Positions 55,675 to 62,414 of a stretch of 64,000 nucleotides of DNA are shown here, piece by piece (position 1 is the first letter of the stretch; each line of letters opens with the position of its first letter). The stretch is from Oscillospiraceae bacterium (lineage in GTDB: Bacteria > Bacillota > Clostridia > Oscillospirales > CAG-382), in NCBI GenBank assembly GCA_015064485.1, contig SVSD01000005.1, positions 42,255 through 106,254 on the forward strand, given 5' to 3'. The position numbers and the translations under genes were made by a program. Below the pieces are notes generated by a model. It did not search any database and was not told the DNA's origin. It saw only the letters and a list, made by a program, of their open reading frames with translations.

Positions 55675-55703
55675 GTCAAAACAGGCCTTTCGTGCATACT
55701 ATA
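55675..55703 (+). promoter_or_regulatory. Possible mother-cell (sigmaK/sigmaE-type) promoter of spoVFA
   Basis: CATACTATA at 55695-55703 matches CATAnnnTA; TCA lies 16 bp upstream; the -35 match is weak. Confidence 0.45.
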
Positions 55704-55733
55704 ATGTATAATCATGCGAAAGGAATAAAGACA

Positions 55734-56528
55734 ATGCTATTAAAAAAAATCGCTGTCATAGGCGGCGATGCCCGTTTTGCGGTATGTGCAGAACTTTTTG
55801 CAAAAAAAGGCTGCGAATGTGCGGTTTTCGGACTTGAAAAAGCCGAAAATCTCTTGATGGCAACCAAAAGTGCAACAATATACGATGCTGTTTCGGGTTG
55901 TGATGCTATAATTCTTCCGATACCTGTGTCGAAAGACAATGATCAGGCTTTCTCGCCTCTATCGGATTTTAAAATAAGTTTGACCGATATTTTAGAAAAT
56001 ATAAAGGGCGATCCGATCATTTTTATCGGTCAAAGCAAGGAATCCGTTCAAAATTCACAATTGTCAGAATTTGATATTATAACATATACAGCATCAAAAA
56101 CTTTTGCATTGCTCGGAAGCGTTCCGACTGCCGAATGTGCCATATCAACCGCTACTTATCACAGCCGTAAATGCTGCTGCAATTCAAGATACCTTATCGT
56201 AGGATGCGGTAATGTCGGTAAACGCTTAGGTCTGCTTTCAAAGAATATGGGTGCGGATGTTTTTATATCCGCAAGAAAAAAAGAAGATCTCGCGTGGATA
56301 GAAGCTCACGGAATGATCCCTTTGAAAACATACGATCTTTCGTCAGAAAAGGTTGAATTTGATGTAATATTCAATACAGTCCCCCACATGGTTCTGGGAG
56401 AACAAGTTCTTAAAAATCTTAAAGGTTATCCTTTGATTATAGAACTTGCTTCAAAACCCTACGGGGCGGGTTTTAAACAAAAAAGGGAATATAAAAAAGT
56501 CCGGAGTGCAAAGAAAAAAGATAACTGA
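55734..56528 (+). CDS. spoVFA: Dipicolinate synthase subunit A, 5' fragment (interrupted after codon 243; the rest of the ORF is element-derived read-through)
   Basis: IAVIGGDAR, ILPIP, VPTAE, GCGNVG, VIFNTVP, IIELASKPYG; homology stops there and the conserved GLPGK C-terminus is found at 61711-61857. Confidence 0.92.
   Translation: MLLKKIAVIGGDARFAVCAELFAKKGCECAVFGLEKAENLLMATKSATIYDAVSGCDAIILPIPVSKDNDQAFSPLSDFKISLTDILENIKGDPIIFIGQSKESVQNSQLSEFDIITYTASKTFALLGSVPTAECAISTATYHSRKCCCNSRYLIVGCGNVGKRLGLLSKNMGADVFISARKKEDLAWIEAHGMIPLKTYDLSSEKVEFDVIFNTVPHMVLGEQVLKNLKGYPLIIELASKPYGAGFKQKREYKKVRSAKKKDN
56453..56477 (+). repeat. Left recombination site (attL-like)
   Basis: aaaaccc-tacGGggc-gggttttaaa; imperfect direct repeat of 61701-61725; dyad centred on GG 56463-56464. 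Confidence 0.85.
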
Positions 56529-56615
56529 AAGAAAAATCAAGATAAAAATCCGATAAAATGAAAGAAAAACTCAAAAACTGAGTTTTTTTAAATAATTATT
56601 TTTTTGCTATCCCCT

Positions 56616-56652
56616 AAAAAAGGAGCTGTAAAAAACTACAGCTCCTTCTTTA
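56616..56652. terminator. Intrinsic terminator of the symporter gene (likely bidirectional)
   Basis: aaaaaaggagctgta-aaaaac-tacagctccttcttt. Confidence 0.8.
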
Positions 56653-56659
56653 TTGATTT

Positions 56660-58264
56660 TTATTTACTTCCGAGATTTTGTTTTGCGTCAACTAAAACTT
56701 TTCTGTCATAGCAAGCAAACATTTTATCAACCTCATCCTTGTCGGGCTTTTTAGTAATAAGGCTCACAACAGGAACGAGTATAAGTCCGCCCACCATAGC
56801 AAAAACACCGGAGTAAAGTGAGTTTGTAAATACAAAGCTCAAGAATCCTTCGGGGAAGGAAAGTCCGCAAATATCCTTTACAAGCTGAACGATTTCAACA
56901 CCGGTACCGAAAATGAAGCTCACAACAACTGCGCTCTTTGTAACGCCCTTCCAGTACAAACCGTAAAGGAAAGGAGCAAGGAATGCACCGGCAAGCGCGC
57001 CCCATGATACACCCATCATCTGAGCTATAAAAGTAGCTCCCGGGAAGCTGTCTTTAACTATTGCAATTACAGCAGATACAACCACAAAGAAAAGAACGAA
57101 AAGTCTGAGTATCAAAAGTTTCTGTTTCTCAGAAACCTTCTTATCTCTTTTTTTCATAACAGGAACTATAACATCGAGTGTCAAAGTCGAGCTTGAAGTA
57201 AGGACAAGAGACGAAAGCGTAGACATAGATGCAGCAAGAACAAGTACAATGACCGTTGCGACAATTACAGGATTAAGTTCAGAAAGCATTGCGGGAACAA
57301 TATTATCCTTCAAAAGTTTCGAACCCACTTCGCCGTTTGCCCATATTGCGCTGTTGTTTGCGTAAAGTCTTCCGAAGCCACCGAGAAAATAACAGCCGCC
57401 CGCTACGATTATAGCAAATATCGTAGAAATTACTGTGCCTTTTTTGATTGAATCTTCGCTGTCTATTGAATAGAATTTGCCGACCATCTGAGGAAGTCCC
57501 CATGTGCCGAGAGATGTAAGTATTACAACAAACAATAAAAATACAGGGTTAGGTCCGAGGAATGACGAATAAGCACCCATAAGTCCGCTCGATCCGTTTT
57601 CGATTACGGAAAGACCTCTGTATGCTTCCATAAATCCGCCGTTGTCAACAAGAACCGCCGCAATTACCGCAACTATACCGACAAGCATAATAATGCCCTG
57701 AATAAAATCGTTTATCGCAGTTGCCATATATCCGCCGAATATTACATAAACACCTGTAAGTGCCGCCATAATGATAATAACGAGCCAGTACGGAATATTG
57801 AAAGCTGAATTGAAAAGGCTCGAAAGTCCGTTATATAACGACGCTGTATAAGGAATAAGAAAAAGAAAAACTATAACAGAAGCTATTGTTTTCAAACTGC
57901 CGGACTGATATCTTTTACCAAAAAAGTCAGGCATTGTTTTCGAGCCCAGATGCTGTGTCATAACTCTTGTTCTTCTTCCGAGAATTACCCAGGGAAGAAG
58001 CGATCCGATAAATGCATTTCCAAGACCTATCCAAGTAGATGCAAGACCGAATTCCCATCCGAACTGACCCGCATATCCGACAAAAATAACTGCCGAAAAA
58101 TACGAAGTACCGAAAGCAAAAGCCGTAAGCCAAGGACCTACCGAGCGTCCGCCAAGAACAAATCCGTCAACATTTGTTGAATGTTTTCTGCAGTATAAGC
58201 CAACGCCTATCATAATTGCAAAAAACGCTGTAAGCATTACGATCGTGATAACCGCCTTTACCAT
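56660..58264 (-). CDS. Sodium:solute symporter (SSS/PutP superfamily)
   Basis: FVLGGRSVGPW, YFSAVIFVG, GGYMATAINDFIQG, WGLPQM, AASMSTLSS; about 13 TM segments. Confidence 0.92.
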   Translation of the reverse strand: MVKAVITIVMLTAFFAIMIGVGLYCRKHSTNVDGFVLGGRSVGPWLTAFAFGTSYFSAVIFVGYAGQFGWEFGLASTWIGLGNAFIGSLLPWVILGRRTRVMTQHLGSKTMPDFFGKRYQSGSLKTIASVIVFLFLIPYTASLYNGLSSLFNSAFNIPYWLVIIIMAALTGVYVIFGGYMATAINDFIQGIIMLVGIVAVIAAVLVDNGGFMEAYRGLSVIENGSSGLMGAYSSFLGPNPVFLLFVVILTSLGTWGLPQMVGKFYSIDSEDSIKKGTVISTIFAIIVAGGCYFLGGFGRLYANNSAIWANGEVGSKLLKDNIVPAMLSELNPVIVATVIVLVLAASMSTLSSLVLTSSSTLTLDVIVPVMKKRDKKVSEKQKLLILRLFVLFFVVVSAVIAIVKDSFPGATFIAQMMGVSWGALAGAFLAPFLYGLYWKGVTKSAVVVSFIFGTGVEIVQLVKDICGLSFPEGFLSFVFTNSLYSGVFAMVGGLILVPVVSLITKKPDKDEVDKMFACYDRKVLVDAKQNLGSK

Positions 58265-58314
58265 TTTAATACCTTCTTTCATTTTTTATTTTTTATGGAA
58301 AACGGTAAAATGGT

Positions 58315-58578
58315 AAAAAAATAACCGTCCTCCAACAAAAGAGGACGGAAAAATCCGTGGTACCACCTCAATTTACCGATATGTTACCATATCAGCCTCA
58401 TCAGGCACATTCTATGCCTTATTGCTGTAACGGGCAAACCCGGCGCAGCCTACTCTTCGCATTTCGGTGCGCAGCTCACAAGATGTATTCGCCAAGTTCT
58501 TTCTTACTGTCTCTCACCGCCCGACAGCTCTCTTAAAAGGTAAGAAAAAGGCTACTTCTTCTCGGTCATCGCTTCTAT
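58315..58578 (-). ncRNA. T-box leader, predicted Tyr (UAC) specifier
   Basis: AGAGAG and GGTGAGA stem I motifs; GAA-TAC-A specifier loop (58485-58490); AAATTGAGGTGGTACCACGG T-box (58355-58374); terminator 58325-58348. Confidence 0.88.
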
Positions 58579-58585
58579 ATCGTGT

Positions 58586-58614
58586 ATTCTACTACAAAAA
58601 ACTAACCTTGTCAA
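58586..58614 (-). promoter_or_regulatory. sigmaA promoter of the Tyr T-box/symporter unit
   Basis: TTGACA-17 bp-TAGAAT; the -35 hexamer overlaps the recombinase stop codon. Confidence 0.75.
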
Positions 58615-59510
58615 GTGTTTTTTGCATTTTTATTAAATCTTTTATTTACCTCCGAAAAAGTTATTTCGTCAACAATAGCTTCGTGTGTTCCGCATACTGT
58701 TATCAGATCGTTTTTTGAGTTTTTATATCTCTTTTCAGTCTTATAATTTATCTTTTTTTCAAATCCTTGGGTAATATCTCCTTTGTATGTAGGATTAGTA
58801 AGAATTCTTTTTATCATCACACTGTTCCAGGCATTGCTTTTTCTTCGATTATCCCTTTTCAAAGACGAAGGCGTAGCAATACCTTCTGCCGTAAGCTCTT
58901 TTGCAATCAACAGCATACTTTTTCCTTCAAGAAATCCTCTATAAATTCTTAAGACCGTATCTTTTGTATTTTTATCGGGAACAAGCTTTGATGGGTCCTT
59001 TTCATCTTTTGTGTAACCGTACGGCGCTGAACTTCCTATAAACTTTCCCGCTCTGCGCCTTGAATCAAGTGCACATCGAACCTTTCTGCTTATATCTTTT
59101 GCATACATATCATTGAAAACAGCTCTGAAAGGTATCATATCGTTTCCGCCGGATTCTGACATAGTATCAACGCCGTCATTGACAGCTATATACCGTATGC
59201 CGTTTTCGGGGAAAAACCTTTCTATATACTCCCCTGTTTCGATATAATCTCTGCCAAGGCGGGACATATCTTTTGTTATTATACATAAAAACTTCTTTGA
59301 AAGAGCATCATTAATCATTTTTTCAAATGACGGACGCCTGAAATTTGTGCCGCTGTAACCGTCGTCAACATATTCTGCAATTATTGTAAAATTGTTTTTG
59401 TTACAATAGTTTTCAAGGAACATTCTTTGAGAAGCGATGCTGTCAGACTCCCCTTTTACTCCGTCATCTTTTGAAAGCCTTAGATATATCGCACAAGCCT
59501 CGTTTTCCAT
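58611..59510 (-). CDS. Serine site-specific recombinase (resolvase catalytic domain + recombinase domain), SpoIVCA-like but short
   Basis: IYLRLS catalytic Ser, YVDDGYSGTNF.RP, KDMSRLGRD, APYGY, ILTNPTYKG, HEAIV; ends at 299 aa with no Cys zinc ribbon. Confidence 0.93.
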   Translation of the reverse strand: MENEACAIYLRLSKDDGVKGESDSIASQRMFLENYCNKNNFTIIAEYVDDGYSGTNFRRPSFEKMINDALSKKFLCIITKDMSRLGRDYIETGEYIERFFPENGIRYIAVNDGVDTMSESGGNDMIPFRAVFNDMYAKDISRKVRCALDSRRRAGKFIGSSAPYGYTKDEKDPSKLVPDKNTKDTVLRIYRGFLEGKSMLLIAKELTAEGIATPSSLKRDNRRKSNAWNSVMIKRILTNPTYKGDITQGFEKKINYKTEKRYKNSKNDLITVCGTHEAIVDEITFSEVNKRFNKNAKNT

Positions 59511-59569
59511 ACAAAAAACCTCACGAACACACTGTAAAACAGTATATTCGCAAGGTCTTAATTATTTTA

Positions 59570-59995
59570 CTATTTGTTGTTTTTATTTTCTTTTTTATCT
59601 TTTCGCTTTGCTTTTATTATTTTTATATCAGATTTTGCTTTTTGATAGAGATCTCTTAATATTCCGAGAGTTTTTTCGTCATTCGGAAACAGGAATTTCA
59701 AAAGCCCGAGTGCGATTGCAACAGTCACTATTTTTTCCGGCGAAAACGGGAACCATAAGATCGTAAGATATGCGCCTGATACCGCAACCATCCACTCAAT
59801 GCCAAAATATACGCCGAACGCCATAAAAACATATGCCCAGCCGTTTGTTATAAGCCAGCCTATCCCAAAGCACAGCAAAAACCTCGGATTAAAAATAAGA
59901 AAAAACAGCTTTATGATGAAGTTTTTTATAAATACTGCAGCTTTTGAATGAGATAGCTTCAAAAAAAACTCTTTGATACTTCTTTTGTCTTTCAA
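59570..59995 (-). CDS. Hypothetical membrane protein
   Basis: 141 aa, 2-3 TM segments, Lys-rich tail; has its own sigmaA-like promoter. Confidence 0.75.
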   Translation of the reverse strand: MKDKRSIKEFFLKLSHSKAAVFIKNFIIKLFFLIFNPRFLLCFGIGWLITNGWAYVFMAFGVYFGIEWMVAVSGAYLTILWFPFSPEKIVTVAIALGLLKFLFPNDEKTLGILRDLYQKAKSDIKIIKAKRKDKKENKNNK

Positions 59996-60039
59996 TAATA
60001 TGTCTTCCTTTTAGAAATTACGGCAAAGCCGACGGAAAT

Positions 60040-60068
60040 ATTATACTTTAAAATGCGCAAAATTTCAA
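60040..60068 (-). promoter_or_regulatory. sigmaA-like promoter of the membrane-protein gene
   Basis: TTGAAA-17 bp-TATAAT. Confidence 0.6.
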
Positions 60069-60076
60069 TAGAAAAC

Positions 60077-60111
60077 AAAAAAGTCCTCCCCTTTTCGTAA
60101 ATAAGGGGAGG
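60077..60111 (-). terminator. serS terminator
   Basis: cctcccctt...aaggggagg hairpin with a T-run on the minus strand. Confidence 0.75.
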
Positions 60112-60117
60112 GAAATT

Positions 60118-61404
60118 TTATTTCTTGGGAACTATCTTTTCAGCGCCGCCCATATAAGGACGAAGAGCGACAGGAATATTTACACTTCCGTCAGCATTAA
60201 GATTGTTTTCAAGGAAGGCTATAAGCATTCTGGGAGGAGCGACAACTGTGTTGTTAAGGGTATGAGCAAGATATTTGGAATCTTTTCCGTTTACTCTTAT
60301 CTTAAGTCTTCTTGCCTGTGCATCGCCAAGGTTAGAACAGCTGCCTACTTCAAAATATTTCTGCTGTCTGGGAGACCACGCCTCAACATCAACAGATTTT
60401 ACCTTAAGATCTGCAAGGTCACCCGAGCAACATTCAAGAGTTCTTACCGGAATATCCATCGAACGGAAAAGATCAACGGTATTCTGCCAGAGCTTGTCAA
60501 ACCACATCGGGCTTTCTTCGGGCTTACATACAACGATCATTTCCTGTTTTTCAAACTGATGGATGCGGTATACACCTCGCTCTTCGATACCGTGAGCGCC
60601 CTTTTCCTTGCGGAAACAGGGAGAATAGCTTGTAAGAGTCTGAGGAAGCTGTTCTTCGGGGATTATCTGGTCGATAAACTTACCGATCATAGAGTGTTCG
60701 GAAGTACCTATAAGATAAAGATCCTCTCCTTCGATCTTATACATCATAGCTTCCATTTCCGCAAAGCTCATAACTCCGGTTACAACATCTGAACGGATCA
60801 TAAAAGGAGGTACACAATATGTGAATCCGCGGTCGATCATAAAATCACGAGCATAAGAAATTACCGCAGAATGAAGACGGGCAATATCACCCATAAGATA
60901 ATAAAAGCCGTTGCCTGCAACTCTTCTTGCGCTGTCAAGGTCGATACCGTTAAAGCTTTCCATAATATCTGTGTGATAAGGAATCTCGTAATCGGGAGTT
61001 ACGGGTTCACCGTATCTCTGAACTTCAACATTTTCGCTGTCATCTTTACCGATGGGAACTGTAGGGTCGATGATCTGAGGAATTATCATCATAATCTTTT
61101 TGATTTTTTCCTCGTATTCGGCTTCAAGAGCTTCGCACTCAGCAAGTCTTGCTGCCTGCTGACCGACAATTTTTTTCATTTCTTCAGCTTCGTCTTTTTT
61201 GCCCTGTCCCATAAGAGCACCGATCATCTTGGAGCACTTGTTTCGTTCAGCTCTGAGTCCGTCAGCTTCAAGCTTTACGGCTCTTGAGTTTTTATCGAGC
61301 TCTATTACCTCGTCAACAAGTTCCAGCTTATGATCCTGAAACTTGTTTTTGATATTTTGCTTTACCACATCAGGGTTTTCACGCAAAAACTTAATATCAA
61401 TCAT
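60118..61404 (-). CDS. serS: Seryl-tRNA synthetase
   Basis: MIDIKFLREN N-terminal coiled coil, LIGTSEH, CFRKEKG..RIHQFEKQE, EVGSCSN, HTLNNT..PPR; full length, 428 aa. Confidence 0.97.
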   Translation of the reverse strand: MIDIKFLRENPDVVKQNIKNKFQDHKLELVDEVIELDKNSRAVKLEADGLRAERNKCSKMIGALMGQGKKDEAEEMKKIVGQQAARLAECEALEAEYEEKIKKIMMIIPQIIDPTVPIGKDDSENVEVQRYGEPVTPDYEIPYHTDIMESFNGIDLDSARRVAGNGFYYLMGDIARLHSAVISYARDFMIDRGFTYCVPPFMIRSDVVTGVMSFAEMEAMMYKIEGEDLYLIGTSEHSMIGKFIDQIIPEEQLPQTLTSYSPCFRKEKGAHGIEERGVYRIHQFEKQEMIVVCKPEESPMWFDKLWQNTVDLFRSMDIPVRTLECCSGDLADLKVKSVDVEAWSPRQQKYFEVGSCSNLGDAQARRLKIRVNGKDSKYLAHTLNNTVVAPPRMLIAFLENNLNADGSVNIPVALRPYMGGAEKIVPKK

Positions 61405-61433
61405 TTTTTCTTCCTCCGAAAATAGTTTTTATA

Positions 61434-61648
61434 AAAAAAGAGTTCTTCCCCACAAATATGGGACGAAGAACTCCGTGTTGCCACCCAAATTGCCGTATAT
61501 ACGGCCACTCAAAAAAGCTGTAAGGGGCTTATCCCCAAGACTCATCGTCTTATGCTCCGAAAGCGGAAAAGCAAAAAACCGACAGCCGATCACACCTTCC
61601 TCGGCCTCTCTTTCGAACAGTCAATTGCCGTTTCTTTCATCATAGCTT
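61434..61648 (-). ncRNA. T-box leader of serS, predicted Ser (UCC) specifier
   Basis: AGAGAG/GGTGTGA motifs; TCC at 61565-61567; AATTTGGGTGGCAACACGG (61473-61491), whose UGGC matches the GCCA end of tRNA-Ser; terminator present. Confidence 0.88.
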
Positions 61649-61652
61649 TAAT

Positions 61653-61681
61653 ATTATACACCAAAAAACCACAAAATGCAA
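61653..61681 (-). promoter_or_regulatory. sigmaA promoter of serS
   Basis: TTGCAT-17 bp-TATAAT, lying just inside the right recombination site. Confidence 0.75.
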
Positions 61682-61697
61682 GATAAATTTTCAACAA

Positions 61698-61722
61698 TTT
61701 AAAACCCGGCGGGGTGGATTTT
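61698..61722 (+). repeat. Right recombination site (attR-like)
   Basis: tttaaaaccc-ggcGGggt-ggatttt; dyad centred on GG 61711-61712. Confidence 0.85.
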
Positions 61723-61857
61723 GAGTGTGCAGAAAAAATAGGACTGAAAACTGTTATAGCCTCAGGACTTCCGGGAAAATATACACCGGTAACTGCAGGA
61801 GAAATAGTTTACAGGTGCATATGTGATGCTCTTGAAGAAAGGGGTTTTGAAATATGA
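61711..61857 (+). CDS. spoVFA: Dipicolinate synthase subunit A, 3' fragment (48 codons, no start of its own)
   Basis: GVDFECAEKIGLKTVIASGLPGKYTPVTAGEIVYRCICDALEERGFEI*, matching the conserved SpoVFA C-terminus; the stop overlaps the spoVFB start (ATGA). Confidence 0.9.
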   Translation, partial: GVDFECAEKIGLKTVIASGLPGKYTPVTAGEIVYRCICDALEERGFEI

Positions 61858-62414
61858 TAGGTTTTTGCCTCACAGGCTCGTTTTGCTCATTTGAGAAAAG
61901 TATAAATGTTATGAAAAATCTTTCTCAAAAGTATGAAATCTTACCGATCATGTCGCAGAATGCATATAATTTGGATACAAAATTCGGAAAAGCAGAAGAT
62001 TTCAGAAGCAAAATAAAGGAAATATGTAATAAAGATATAATCCATACCATAACAGAGGCAGAACCGATAGGACCAGCCGTAAAACTCGACTGTCTTGTAG
62101 TCTGTCCGTGTACGGGAAATACATTATCAAAAATAGCCTGCGGCATTACAGATACAAGCGCCACAATGGCAATAAAAGCACAGCTCAGAAACGAAAGACC
62201 GGTGCTTCTTGCAATTGCATCAAACGACGGACTTTCCGGTTCTTCGGTTTCTGTGTCAAAGCTTTTGCAAAGGGAAAATATTTACTTTGTCCCCTTCTCG
62301 CAGGACTCCCCTTTTAAAAAGCCCCGTTCTGTTGTATGCGATTTTGATAAAACCGGAGAAGCTCTGTCCCTTGCCCTTGAAGGCAAACAAATTCAGCCTA
62401 TACTTTACAGTTGA
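61854..62414 (+). CDS. spoVFB: Dipicolinate synthase subunit B
   Basis: GFCLTGSFC, AEPIGP, PCTGNTLSK, NDGL, YFVPFSQD..KKPRS, QIQP. Confidence 0.95.
   Translation: MIGFCLTGSFCSFEKSINVMKNLSQKYEILPIMSQNAYNLDTKFGKAEDFRSKIKEICNKDIIHTITEAEPIGPAVKLDCLVVCPCTGNTLSKIACGITDTSATMAIKAQLRNERPVLLAIASNDGLSGSSVSVSKLLQRENIYFVPFSQDSPFKKPRSVVCDFDKTGEALSLALEGKQIQPILYS

Follow-up and report, generated by a model that had tools for sequence, protein, structure and literature searches.

The DNA considered here is a 64,000-nucleotide stretch (the window) of contig SVSD01000005.1 in the Oscillospiraceae bacterium assembly GCA_015064485.1. In this window dpaA (spoVFA), the gene for subunit A of dipicolinate synthase, is interrupted by an intervening element of 5,248 bp between the Gly and Val codons of the sequence S-K-P-Y-G / V-D-F. 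The frame of the 5' part (55692-56528) is readable as far as ...IIELASKPYG and continues inside the insert with unrelated residues (AGFKQKREYKK...) up to a stop at 56528. The frame of the 3' part begins within the right-hand junction site, reads G-VDFECAEKIGLKTVIASGLPGK...GFEI, and terminates at 61855-57 with a stop codon that overlaps the start of dpaB. The Gly codon (GGG) begins at 56463 in the left junction and at 61711 in the right one, with identical phase, and exchange within the core shared by the two junctions would therefore rejoin dpaA in frame. The rejoined DpaA protein, reconstructed from the two parts, agrees with the products of intact genes from the same genus (...LASKPYG-V/I-DFE). 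All of the genes between the junctions lie on the minus strand (Table 1).

Table 1. Features of the split dpaA locus, in window coordinates; aa, amino acids; ORF, open reading frame.
Feature	Position	Strand	Evidence or detail
dpaA (spoVFA) 5' part, to Gly codon GGG 56463-65	55692..56465	+	translation; Pfam DpaA_N, E 4e-23
attL, 28 bp	56450..56477	+	chromosome-side arm 56450-56462, central GG 56463-64, insert-side arm 56465-56477
Cargo: sodium:solute symporter, 540 aa	56660..58282	-	PF00474, E 1e-55; PutP and PanF models below cut-offs
T-box leader of the symporter gene	58338..58578	-	RF00230, 130.6 bits
Short serine recombinase, 299 aa	58611..59510	-	PF00239 at residues 7-156, PF07508 at 182-295
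Strong hairpin and T run, directly upstream of the recombinase start	59516..59558	-	-28.1 kcal/mol, z -7.2
Hydrophobic ORF, 141 aa; kept in related elements	59570..59995	-	without family match
Cargo: seryl-tRNA synthetase (serS)	60118..61404	-	TIGR00414, 401 bits, above cut-off
T-box leader of serS	61456..61652	-	93.6 bits, cut-off 93
attR, 28 bp	61698..61725	+	insert-side arm 61698-61710, central GG 61711-12, chromosome-side arm 61713-61725
dpaA 3' part, G-VDFECAEK...GFEI	61711..61857	+	stop 61855-57; alignment to intact relatives
dpaB (spoVFB), intact, overlaps dpaA stop	61854..62414	+	

An initial annotation of this DNA had placed a pair of imperfect direct repeats at the two ends of the insert, and both were located letter for letter: the left site (56453-56474) is AAAACCC / TAC / GG / GGC / GGGTTTT and the right site (61701-61722) is AAAACCC / GGC / GG / GGT / GGATTTT. 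They are the attL and attR of the element that splits dpaA, and not free-standing repeats. Between the two 22-mers, 18 of 22 positions match, a level of identity found at a rate of 1e-5 among 1,000,000 random 22-mer pairs drawn from the window. The insert-side arms that had been paired in that annotation, TTTAAAACCCG (61698-61708) and CGGGTTTTAAA (56467-56477), are indeed exact reverse complements over 11 bp. Counted outward from the central GG, 12 of 13 positions of the insert-side arms are complementary, with position 2 as the sole mismatch; complementarity of at least 12/13 arose in 3 of 1,000,000 random joints within the window. The junction of the predicted excised circle had also been called perfectly palindromic, a description that is correct for the 11-bp arms and incorrect for the 6 bp between them, which include the GG and are non-palindromic. 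The half-site pattern AAAAYCCNNC occurs ten times in the window (6.4 expected), and four of these ten are exactly the four half-sites of attL and attR. The other six matches lie at 8193-37929, and no extra copy of the motif was found in or near the element. Elsewhere in the genome, a third copy of the half-site-plus-core pattern lies at C28:27994, which is at about the level of chance (an estimated ~0.4 expected).

The same split was found in other genomes. The N-terminal part of DpaA was used to search 41 genomes (this one and 40 relatives) and matched in 39; the loci of 29 relatives were read beyond the LASKP motif, and of the nine matched genomes without such a locus one, G003, was inspected. 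Among the 29 loci, dpaA was intact in 23 and carried foreign sequence at the identical codon in six (G001, G005, G006, G007, G008 and, in another family, G034); the gene is also split in G003. For the genus, this amounts to a split dpaA in 7/10 genomes (this one, G001, G003 and G005-G008) and an intact gene in three (G002, G004 and G009). Public genomes were scanned with an alignment of 25 short recombinases, which returned 80 loci; in eight of these, the two halves of dpaA flank the recombinase gene and are split at the identical codon (L045, from the type strain Clostridium leptum DSM 753, and L049, L051, L054, L062, L068, L080 and L108). The identical codon is split in 16 genomes altogether, i.e., this genome and 15 others (six of the genus, one of another family and eight public records). 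Of 151 sampled genomes from the family, 137 contained dpaB, and a close match to the recombinase (E 1e-62 or better) lay on the dpaB contig only in the seven genomes of the genus; 11 other genomes of this sample had matches on other contigs, in open frames of 535-583 aa. Judged from these collections, the distribution of the split is patchy, consisting of one genus of the family and scattered members of other families of the order.

Comparison of the split loci with intact genes narrows the position of the exchange. GGGG is present at the aligned place in 16/16 left junctions and in all 15 right junctions with sequence, and the core shared by both junctions is C-GGGG (56462-56466) in this genome and GGGG only in G008. 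To the left of the core, attL reads TAC (Tyr) in all seven split genomes of the genus, and the intact genus genes read TAC or TAT; the aligned triplet at attR drifts within the genus (GGC, GCG, GCC, GAC), as non-coding DNA would. To the right of the core it is attR that matches the intact genes, with GTG or GTC (Val), and attL reads GCG or GAG. Intact dpaA in G002, G004 and G009 reads S-K-P-Y-G-V/I-D. The TAC on the left and the GT on the right therefore belong to the chromosome, and the exchange is confined to the core C-GGGG.

The position of the overlap within this core was sought in the symmetry of the sites. For the 14 elements with both junctions, the insert-side (attP-type) and chromosome-side (attB-type) sites were reconstructed computationally, and the complementarity of their arms was scored over 13 positions for eleven candidate central dinucleotides. 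The summed score of the attP-type sites was 130/182 at the first GG and no more than 59 at any of the ten shifted centres, and that of the attB-type sites was 102/182 at the first GG, with 79 as the best value elsewhere. Taken individually, 12 elements have their maximum at the first GG; of the other two, L045 is tied and L062 peaks at +2. Serine recombinases cleave symmetrically about the dyad of the bound dimer. With the dyad centred on the first GG, symmetric cleavage (described in the introduction of PMC10754689) would therefore leave a 2-bp overlap at 56463-64 and 61711-12. This is the crossover proposed in the initial annotation (GG 56463-64 x 61711-12), and it is well supported by the comparison with intact genes, the GGGG-only core of G008, the dyad centre and the co-variation of the arms described below.

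Two other placements of the exchange were weighed against this one. Exchange within the 7-bp AAAACCC identity further left would produce a gene reading S-K-P-G-G-V-D-F; AAAACCC is common to both junctions in this genome, and P-G-G is the commonest motif of intact dpaA genes outside the genus. However, the AAAACCC identity is not common to both junctions in G005, G006, G007, G008 or L045, and the triplet that such an exchange would bring into the gene drifts within the genus between Gly, Ala and Asp codons, whereas the TAC of attL is invariant. The intact genus genes carry Tyr, contrary to this placement, and the dyad centre is at least 6 bp from the identity. This crossover was rejected, as the TAC/attR-triplet pattern and the core place the exchange further right, and hardly any weight can be given to it. 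The second placement keeps the element and enzyme as described here and moves the overlap to the second or third GG of the core (56464-65 or 56465-66). All three GG registers within GGGG give identical products that junction sequences cannot separate, and the exact dinucleotide is therefore deduced from symmetry and not from an observed cut. At the third position of the core, G is found in 15/15 occupied right junctions, against 4/21 intact dpaA genes (in which it completes a GGG Gly codon), and this tells against the first GG: an overlap that included the third G would require that base, and an overlap shifted by one base would be an alternative fit. The symmetry argues the other way, as the dyad score of the attP-type sites drops from 130/182 to 57/182 and 55/182 at shifts of +1 and +2. 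In addition, the G at +1 mirrors, across the dyad, the C at -1, a base found in 13/14 chromosome-side left arms, and the constancy of the third G also fits recognition of a C/G pair at half-site position 1. A shifted overlap is accordingly considered unlikely, and the first GG is retained in what follows.

The arms themselves carry further information. Within the genus, conservation of the insert-side site spans about -14 to +15, beyond which the DNA is unalignable; the synonymous sites of the element genes are saturated between most species pairs. The arms vary between elements, yet the left and right arms of any one element co-vary. Perfect 11-bp arm pairs with differing sequences are found in this element (TTTAAAACCCG), in G001 (TGCAAAACCCG), in L080 (TTCAAAATCAG) and, at positions 4-14, in L051 (ATCCGAAGCCA). 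Mean symmetry within an element was 9.29/13, compared with 6.47 in 150 pairs of unrelated elements, and over the outer six positions the corresponding values were 4.57 and 2.31. The insert-side arms also track the local chromosome-side right arm, to which they are identical at the outer six positions in G008, G001, G007 and L080, and all four half-sites of a genome share one motif, which in this genome is AAAA-Y-CC-NN-C when read toward the centre. The earlier proposal that the sites are still under selection fits these observations, being supported by the co-variation of the arms and by the persistence of sites and recombinase despite synonymous saturation.

The extent of the sites can be compared with that of a characterised integrase. 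In the solved complex of Listeria integrase with attP, the Recombinase domain occupies positions 1-12 of the half-site, and the zinc ribbon reads a motif at positions 16-24 in attP and 11-19 in attB; this shift of the motif, together with the coiled coil, gives the integrase its directionality, as described in PMC3783163. In the dpaA elements, symmetry and conservation end at about +/-14, and no conservation was found in the sites where a zinc ribbon would bind. On this comparison with the complex of PMC3783163, the conserved extent agrees with the region of the Recombinase domain (1-12) and not with the zinc-ribbon motif at 16-24.

The recombinase encoded by the element is short. Its catalytic domain matches PF00239 (E 9e-24), and its Recombinase domain (PF07508, residues 182-295) covers profile positions 3-102 of 102, at which point the protein ends; the zinc-ribbon domain PF13408 has no match in the 299 residues. 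These domain borders rest on Pfam and on alignment. The protein stops about 10 residues before the Cys-rich zinc ribbon of relatives of 489-491 aa, which extend 190-195 residues past its own end, and none of this extension, coiled coil included, is present. No remnant of a zinc ribbon or coiled coil was found downstream of the gene, where the symporter T-box begins 32 nt after the stop, and no stand-alone zinc-ribbon ORF was found in the genome. The best-matching piece of a solved structure is the N-terminal domain of TnpX (E 1e-30); CcrB, CcrC and XisF gave weak, sub-threshold matches, and models for resolvases, invertases and IS607 match the catalytic part only, below their cut-offs. The initial annotation had missed that this enzyme is without the domains by which large serine recombinases discriminate between sites. 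Other origins of the insert were considered and rejected: a target-site duplication made by a transposase (the identity is only 5 bp, the flanks are imperfect and the insert holds no transposase) and a tyrosine recombinase (none is encoded in the insert).

As judged from alignment, the short form of the enzyme is conserved. All seven elements of the genus encode a recombinase of ~300 aa (295-300 aa, counted between the aligned start and the stop codon), and 25 short forms show no variation at Y9, R11 (the catalytic Arg) and S13 (the catalytic Ser) or in the SRLGRD motif. The ratio of nonsynonymous to synonymous substitution rates (dN/dS) of the recombinase is 0.12, 0.13 and 0.14 in the three unsaturated pairs; for dpaB it is 0.11-0.125. 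Among the best 120 database clusters listed, 36 are of 215-327 aa and without the zinc-ribbon domain. The dpaA-associated enzymes form a series of lengths: 489-491 aa (L045, L068, L108), 397-449 aa (L054, L062, G034; zinc ribbon present, little or no coiled coil), 361 aa (L051) and 284-306 aa. In a tree of 89 rows, obtained by a quick maximum-likelihood search with support from the Shimodaira-Hasegawa-like approximate likelihood ratio test (SH-aLRT) and containing several long branches, all 15 of the included dpaA-associated enzymes fall into one clade of 18 rows (support 94), with three rows from short contigs. The short forms in this tree are the genus clade (support 99), L049, which is the sister of the 433-aa enzyme of L062 (support 97), and L080, on a long and unresolved branch. 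By this tree, the short form arose at least twice among dpaA-associated relatives of ~490 aa.

The best explanation for these observations is that the insert is a skin-like element of dpaA, with 28-bp dyad sites (13 bp + GG + 13 bp), that is excised by its own short recombinase, and this is considered probable. Each site would be bound by a dimer of the recombinase, whose cleavage at the central GG would produce 2-nt overhangs. The GG is non-palindromic and the sites are direct repeats, and the exchange would therefore delete the element as a circle. Deletion would rejoin dpaA in frame as ...S-K-P-Y-G-V-D-F.... The enzyme may be regarded as a natural minimal large serine recombinase with sites that are correspondingly short and alike, as a protein in which the Recombinase domain is the only DNA-binding part should need just the inner 12-14 bp of a half-site. 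Such a protein would be expected to have no built-in discrimination between attP/attB and attL/attR and to work without a directionality factor; the intramolecular nature of the deletion would set the direction, together with the time and place of enzyme production, presumably the terminal mother cell. dpaA is expressed under sigma-K, as described in bioRxiv 10.1101/2022.02.25.481979. The element may have been domesticated, i.e., with integration no longer needed, the parts serving integration and its control could have been shed, leaving one deletion in the mother cell. The anatomy of the element, the in-frame join, the common core, the dyad centre, the co-variation of the arms, the conservation of the short enzyme and the recurrence in 16 genomes can be read from the sequences. 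From these we infer that excision occurs, that it does so in the mother cell, and that the short enzyme alone performs it at the exact dinucleotide given above.

Several observations weigh against this reading. No active large serine recombinase that lacks a zinc ribbon is known to us. The phiC31 integrase is inactive without its coiled coil, according to PMC10754689. When seven upstream regions of the recombinase gene were aligned, no recognisable sporulation promoter (sigma-E or sigma-K motif) was found, and only the hairpin was conserved. The contigs of four metagenome runs, out of 16, in which the organism is present at ~3-6x depth, revealed no excised form. Metagenome contigs bridge attL (e.g., 56089-56577) and attR (61457-62000) without differences, and the predicted joint 56464>61713 is not among the 15 joints listed of 45; contigs drop rare variants and are hence uninformative on excision. 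A scan for the empty site with the 25-nt left flank and the core gave 0 matches in the metagenome contigs. A scan of genome contigs for the circle junction, with a 17-nt query of core and insert-side arm, gave at least 119 matches, and no circle junction was among the matches listed; these comprised one true junction (attL) and, for the rest, unrelated hairpin repeats. The 17-mer is itself part of a GC-rich hairpin repeat with arms joined by TTTAAA (e.g., in L141 and L176), a repeat that is common in Desulfobacterota and other environmental metagenome-assembled genomes.

These points bear on two further explanations. The insert could be a fossil, its recombinase dead since the loss of the zinc ribbon and coiled coil and its dpaA permanently split, in which case dipicolinate would be made another way or normal spores would no longer be made. 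Indeed, the enzyme is without the domains responsible for site recognition and synapsis in large serine recombinases, and the inactivity of the truncated phiC31 integrase and the lack of an excised junction among the sequences searched would both be expected. However, across seven species with saturated synonymous divergence, both halves of dpaA have stayed open, dpaB has been kept, and an ORF of ~300 aa has been retained with its catalytic residues and a dN/dS of 0.12-0.14. The non-coding insert-side arms are conserved and co-varying between scrambled flanks, and truncation took place at the identical domain border in at least two separate lineages. The organism also retains Spo0A, SpoIVA and the SpoVA dipicolinate channel (SpoVAC/SpoVAEB), and a working dpaA should therefore matter to it, contrary to what a fossil would imply; this explanation is considered improbable. 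Alternatively, one of two full-length large serine recombinases encoded outside the window (at G000:C5:13954-14856 and G000:C24:486-1358, with open frames of 560 and 552 aa) might perform excision in trans, with the short protein as an accessory factor or regulator. Both of these enzymes carry the zinc ribbon, and the gin element of B. cereus has three recombinase genes, of which GirC and GirX are the required pair, as PMC5595907 describes. The two enzymes nevertheless share only 36-37% identity with the short protein and fall outside the dpaA-associated clade of the tree, the related recombinases on dpaB contigs of the family sample are of the short form only (in the seven genomes of the genus), and the sites are without conservation at the positions that a zinc ribbon would read. 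Excision in trans is thus a still less probable explanation than a fossil, and excision by the element's own short recombinase is the one followed below.

One of the closest known systems is skin with its recombinase SpoIVCA (sigK; Bacillus subtilis and Clostridioides difficile), which is likewise an insert in a mother-cell sporulation gene with a serine recombinase and direct-repeat att sites, and which differs in its target (sigK there, dpaA here). SpoIVCA-type enzymes are full-length, at ~500 aa. Precise excision of skin rebuilds sigK, as set out in bioRxiv 10.1101/2022.02.25.481979 and PMC4191935, and in C. difficile this excision needs a directionality factor (described in PMC5025042), whereas the enzyme of the dpaA element is without the domains on which such a factor acts. 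The same class includes vfbin, in spoVFB (dpaB) of Bacillus weihenstephanensis KBAB4 (PMC4191935), which interrupts the partner subunit of the same enzyme, dipicolinate synthase; skin, SPbeta (SprA-SprB in spsM), vrin (in spoVR) and gin (GirC-GirX in gerE) are named alongside it in PMC4191935 and PMC5595907. The vfbin, vrin, SPbeta and gin group carries phage genes, whereas the cargo of the dpaA element consists of housekeeping genes, i.e., the only serS and a symporter under T-box control. Intervening elements are thus known for sigK, spsM, spoVFB, spoVR and gerE, and a family that splits dpaA was not met in the literature searched. The terms spoVFA and dpaA are absent from PMC4191935 and PMC5595907, and the dpaAB section of bioRxiv 10.1101/2022.02.25.481979 mentions no split dpaA; the search did not extend to subscription journals and supplements, and an earlier description is possible. 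The dpaA element is accordingly placed among the sporulation-gene intervening elements, and what appears to be new is a recombinase conserved without zinc ribbon and coiled coil and, if it is active, its 28-bp sites.

With the large serine recombinases (the LI/A118, phiC31 and Bxb1 integrases, TnpX, CcrB/CcrC and XisF) the short enzyme shares a catalytic domain with the Arg-x-Ser nucleophile motif, a Recombinase domain and, as predicted here, a 2-bp non-palindromic crossover at the dyad centre. It differs from them in having neither zinc ribbon nor coiled coil, and its sites are of ~28 bp, compared with the 40-50 bp given for large serine recombinases in PMC10754689. The attP-type and attB-type half-sites are alike here, whereas the position of the zinc-ribbon motif differs between those of the large serine recombinases. 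The Listeria (LI) integrase from which the coiled coil had been deleted recombined attP x attB as well as attL x attR with no directionality factor present, although inefficiently (reported in PMC10754689). The dpaA-associated forms of 397-449 aa (L054, L062, G034) look like natural versions of that engineered protein, which keeps its zinc ribbon; the natural forms of 284-306 aa have lost the zinc ribbon too. Small serine recombinases (resolvases and invertases) act on a crossover site of ~28 bp, with one recognition domain containing a helix-turn-helix (HTH) per subunit. The arrangement proposed here resembles theirs in principle, as in res site I and hix a dimer sits on a short and near-symmetric ~28-bp crossover site. 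The small enzymes, of ~180-200 aa with a short C-terminal HTH of ~60 aa, differ from the 299-aa protein and its larger PF07508 domain, and they use accessory sites or an enhancer, whereas no extra half-site copies lie near the junctions of the dpaA element.

The cargo of the element offers a reason why it might persist. In this genome, which is 94% complete, serS at 60118-61404 was the sole gene found for a seryl-tRNA synthetase. It is 93-94% identical to serS inside the G008 and G007 elements and 92-94% identical to serS of G002 and G004, genomes with intact dpaA in which the gene is located elsewhere; G003 and G009 have a different type of serS, at 35% identity. In G002 and G004, no att-like motif was found around serS within the flanking sequence available (up to 3 kb). 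An essential gene carried on an element that is discarded in the mother cell would make that element unlosable from the germ line. A wider account can be suggested, although it is put forward as a possibility that falls somewhat short of being probable: the lineage would have repeatedly shed the coiled coil (397-449 aa forms) and then the zinc ribbon (284-306 aa forms, in at least two independent losses), the minimal enzyme left, with catalytic and Recombinase domains only, would need neither partner nor directionality factor on its near-symmetric 28-bp sites and would serve a developmentally timed reaction limited to excision, and the genus element would hold the only serS so that the germ line cannot lose it.

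The dpaA-associated enzymes provide a natural series of full-length, coiled-coil-less and zinc-ribbon-less recombinases on one target codon. This series would allow the directionality model for serine integrases to be tested, by asking what site choice and direction are left after loss of the coiled coil and of the zinc ribbon. Should the 299-aa protein prove active on 28-bp sites, few integrase-type recombinases would be as compact or use sites as short, which would make it of practical interest to genome engineers. In the annotation of these genomes, dpaA should not be labelled a pseudogene.

Some further features of the elements concern the expression of their genes. The hairpin upstream of the recombinase gene, with 20 pairs and a T run, ends 8 nt before the start codon and covers the GAGG ribosome-binding site, and G005-G008 have a similar hairpin at the equivalent place. 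It could be a terminator of the upstream ORF, a brake on translation of the recombinase, or both. The recombinase gene lies directly against attR in G001 and G003, where excision would change its upstream region. In the Anaerotruncus-labelled locus L051 (10001-11083, plus strand), the frame of the 361-aa recombinase crosses attR into the 3' part of dpaA, and excision would alter the C-terminus of the recombinase. In the T-box of the symporter gene, the triplet that follows the conserved GAA in the Rfam alignment is UAC (Tyr), a tentative assignment; the T-box of serS aligns poorly at that triplet, which is possibly, and again tentatively, UCC.

The related elements also differ in content. Four of them have an ORF of 179-182 aa resembling YbaK/EbsC (aminoacyl-tRNA deacylase) between the recombinase and the small membrane ORF (L040:3822-4361, minus strand, and equivalents in G006, G007 and G008); its match to TIGR00011 is weak, and the ORF is absent from the element described here. 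The G003 element is just 3.05 kb in size and consists of symporter and recombinase, and that of G008 (L039, G008:C16:9500-29100) reaches 18.5 kb and holds the shared genes and about ten further ORFs of 250-900 aa.

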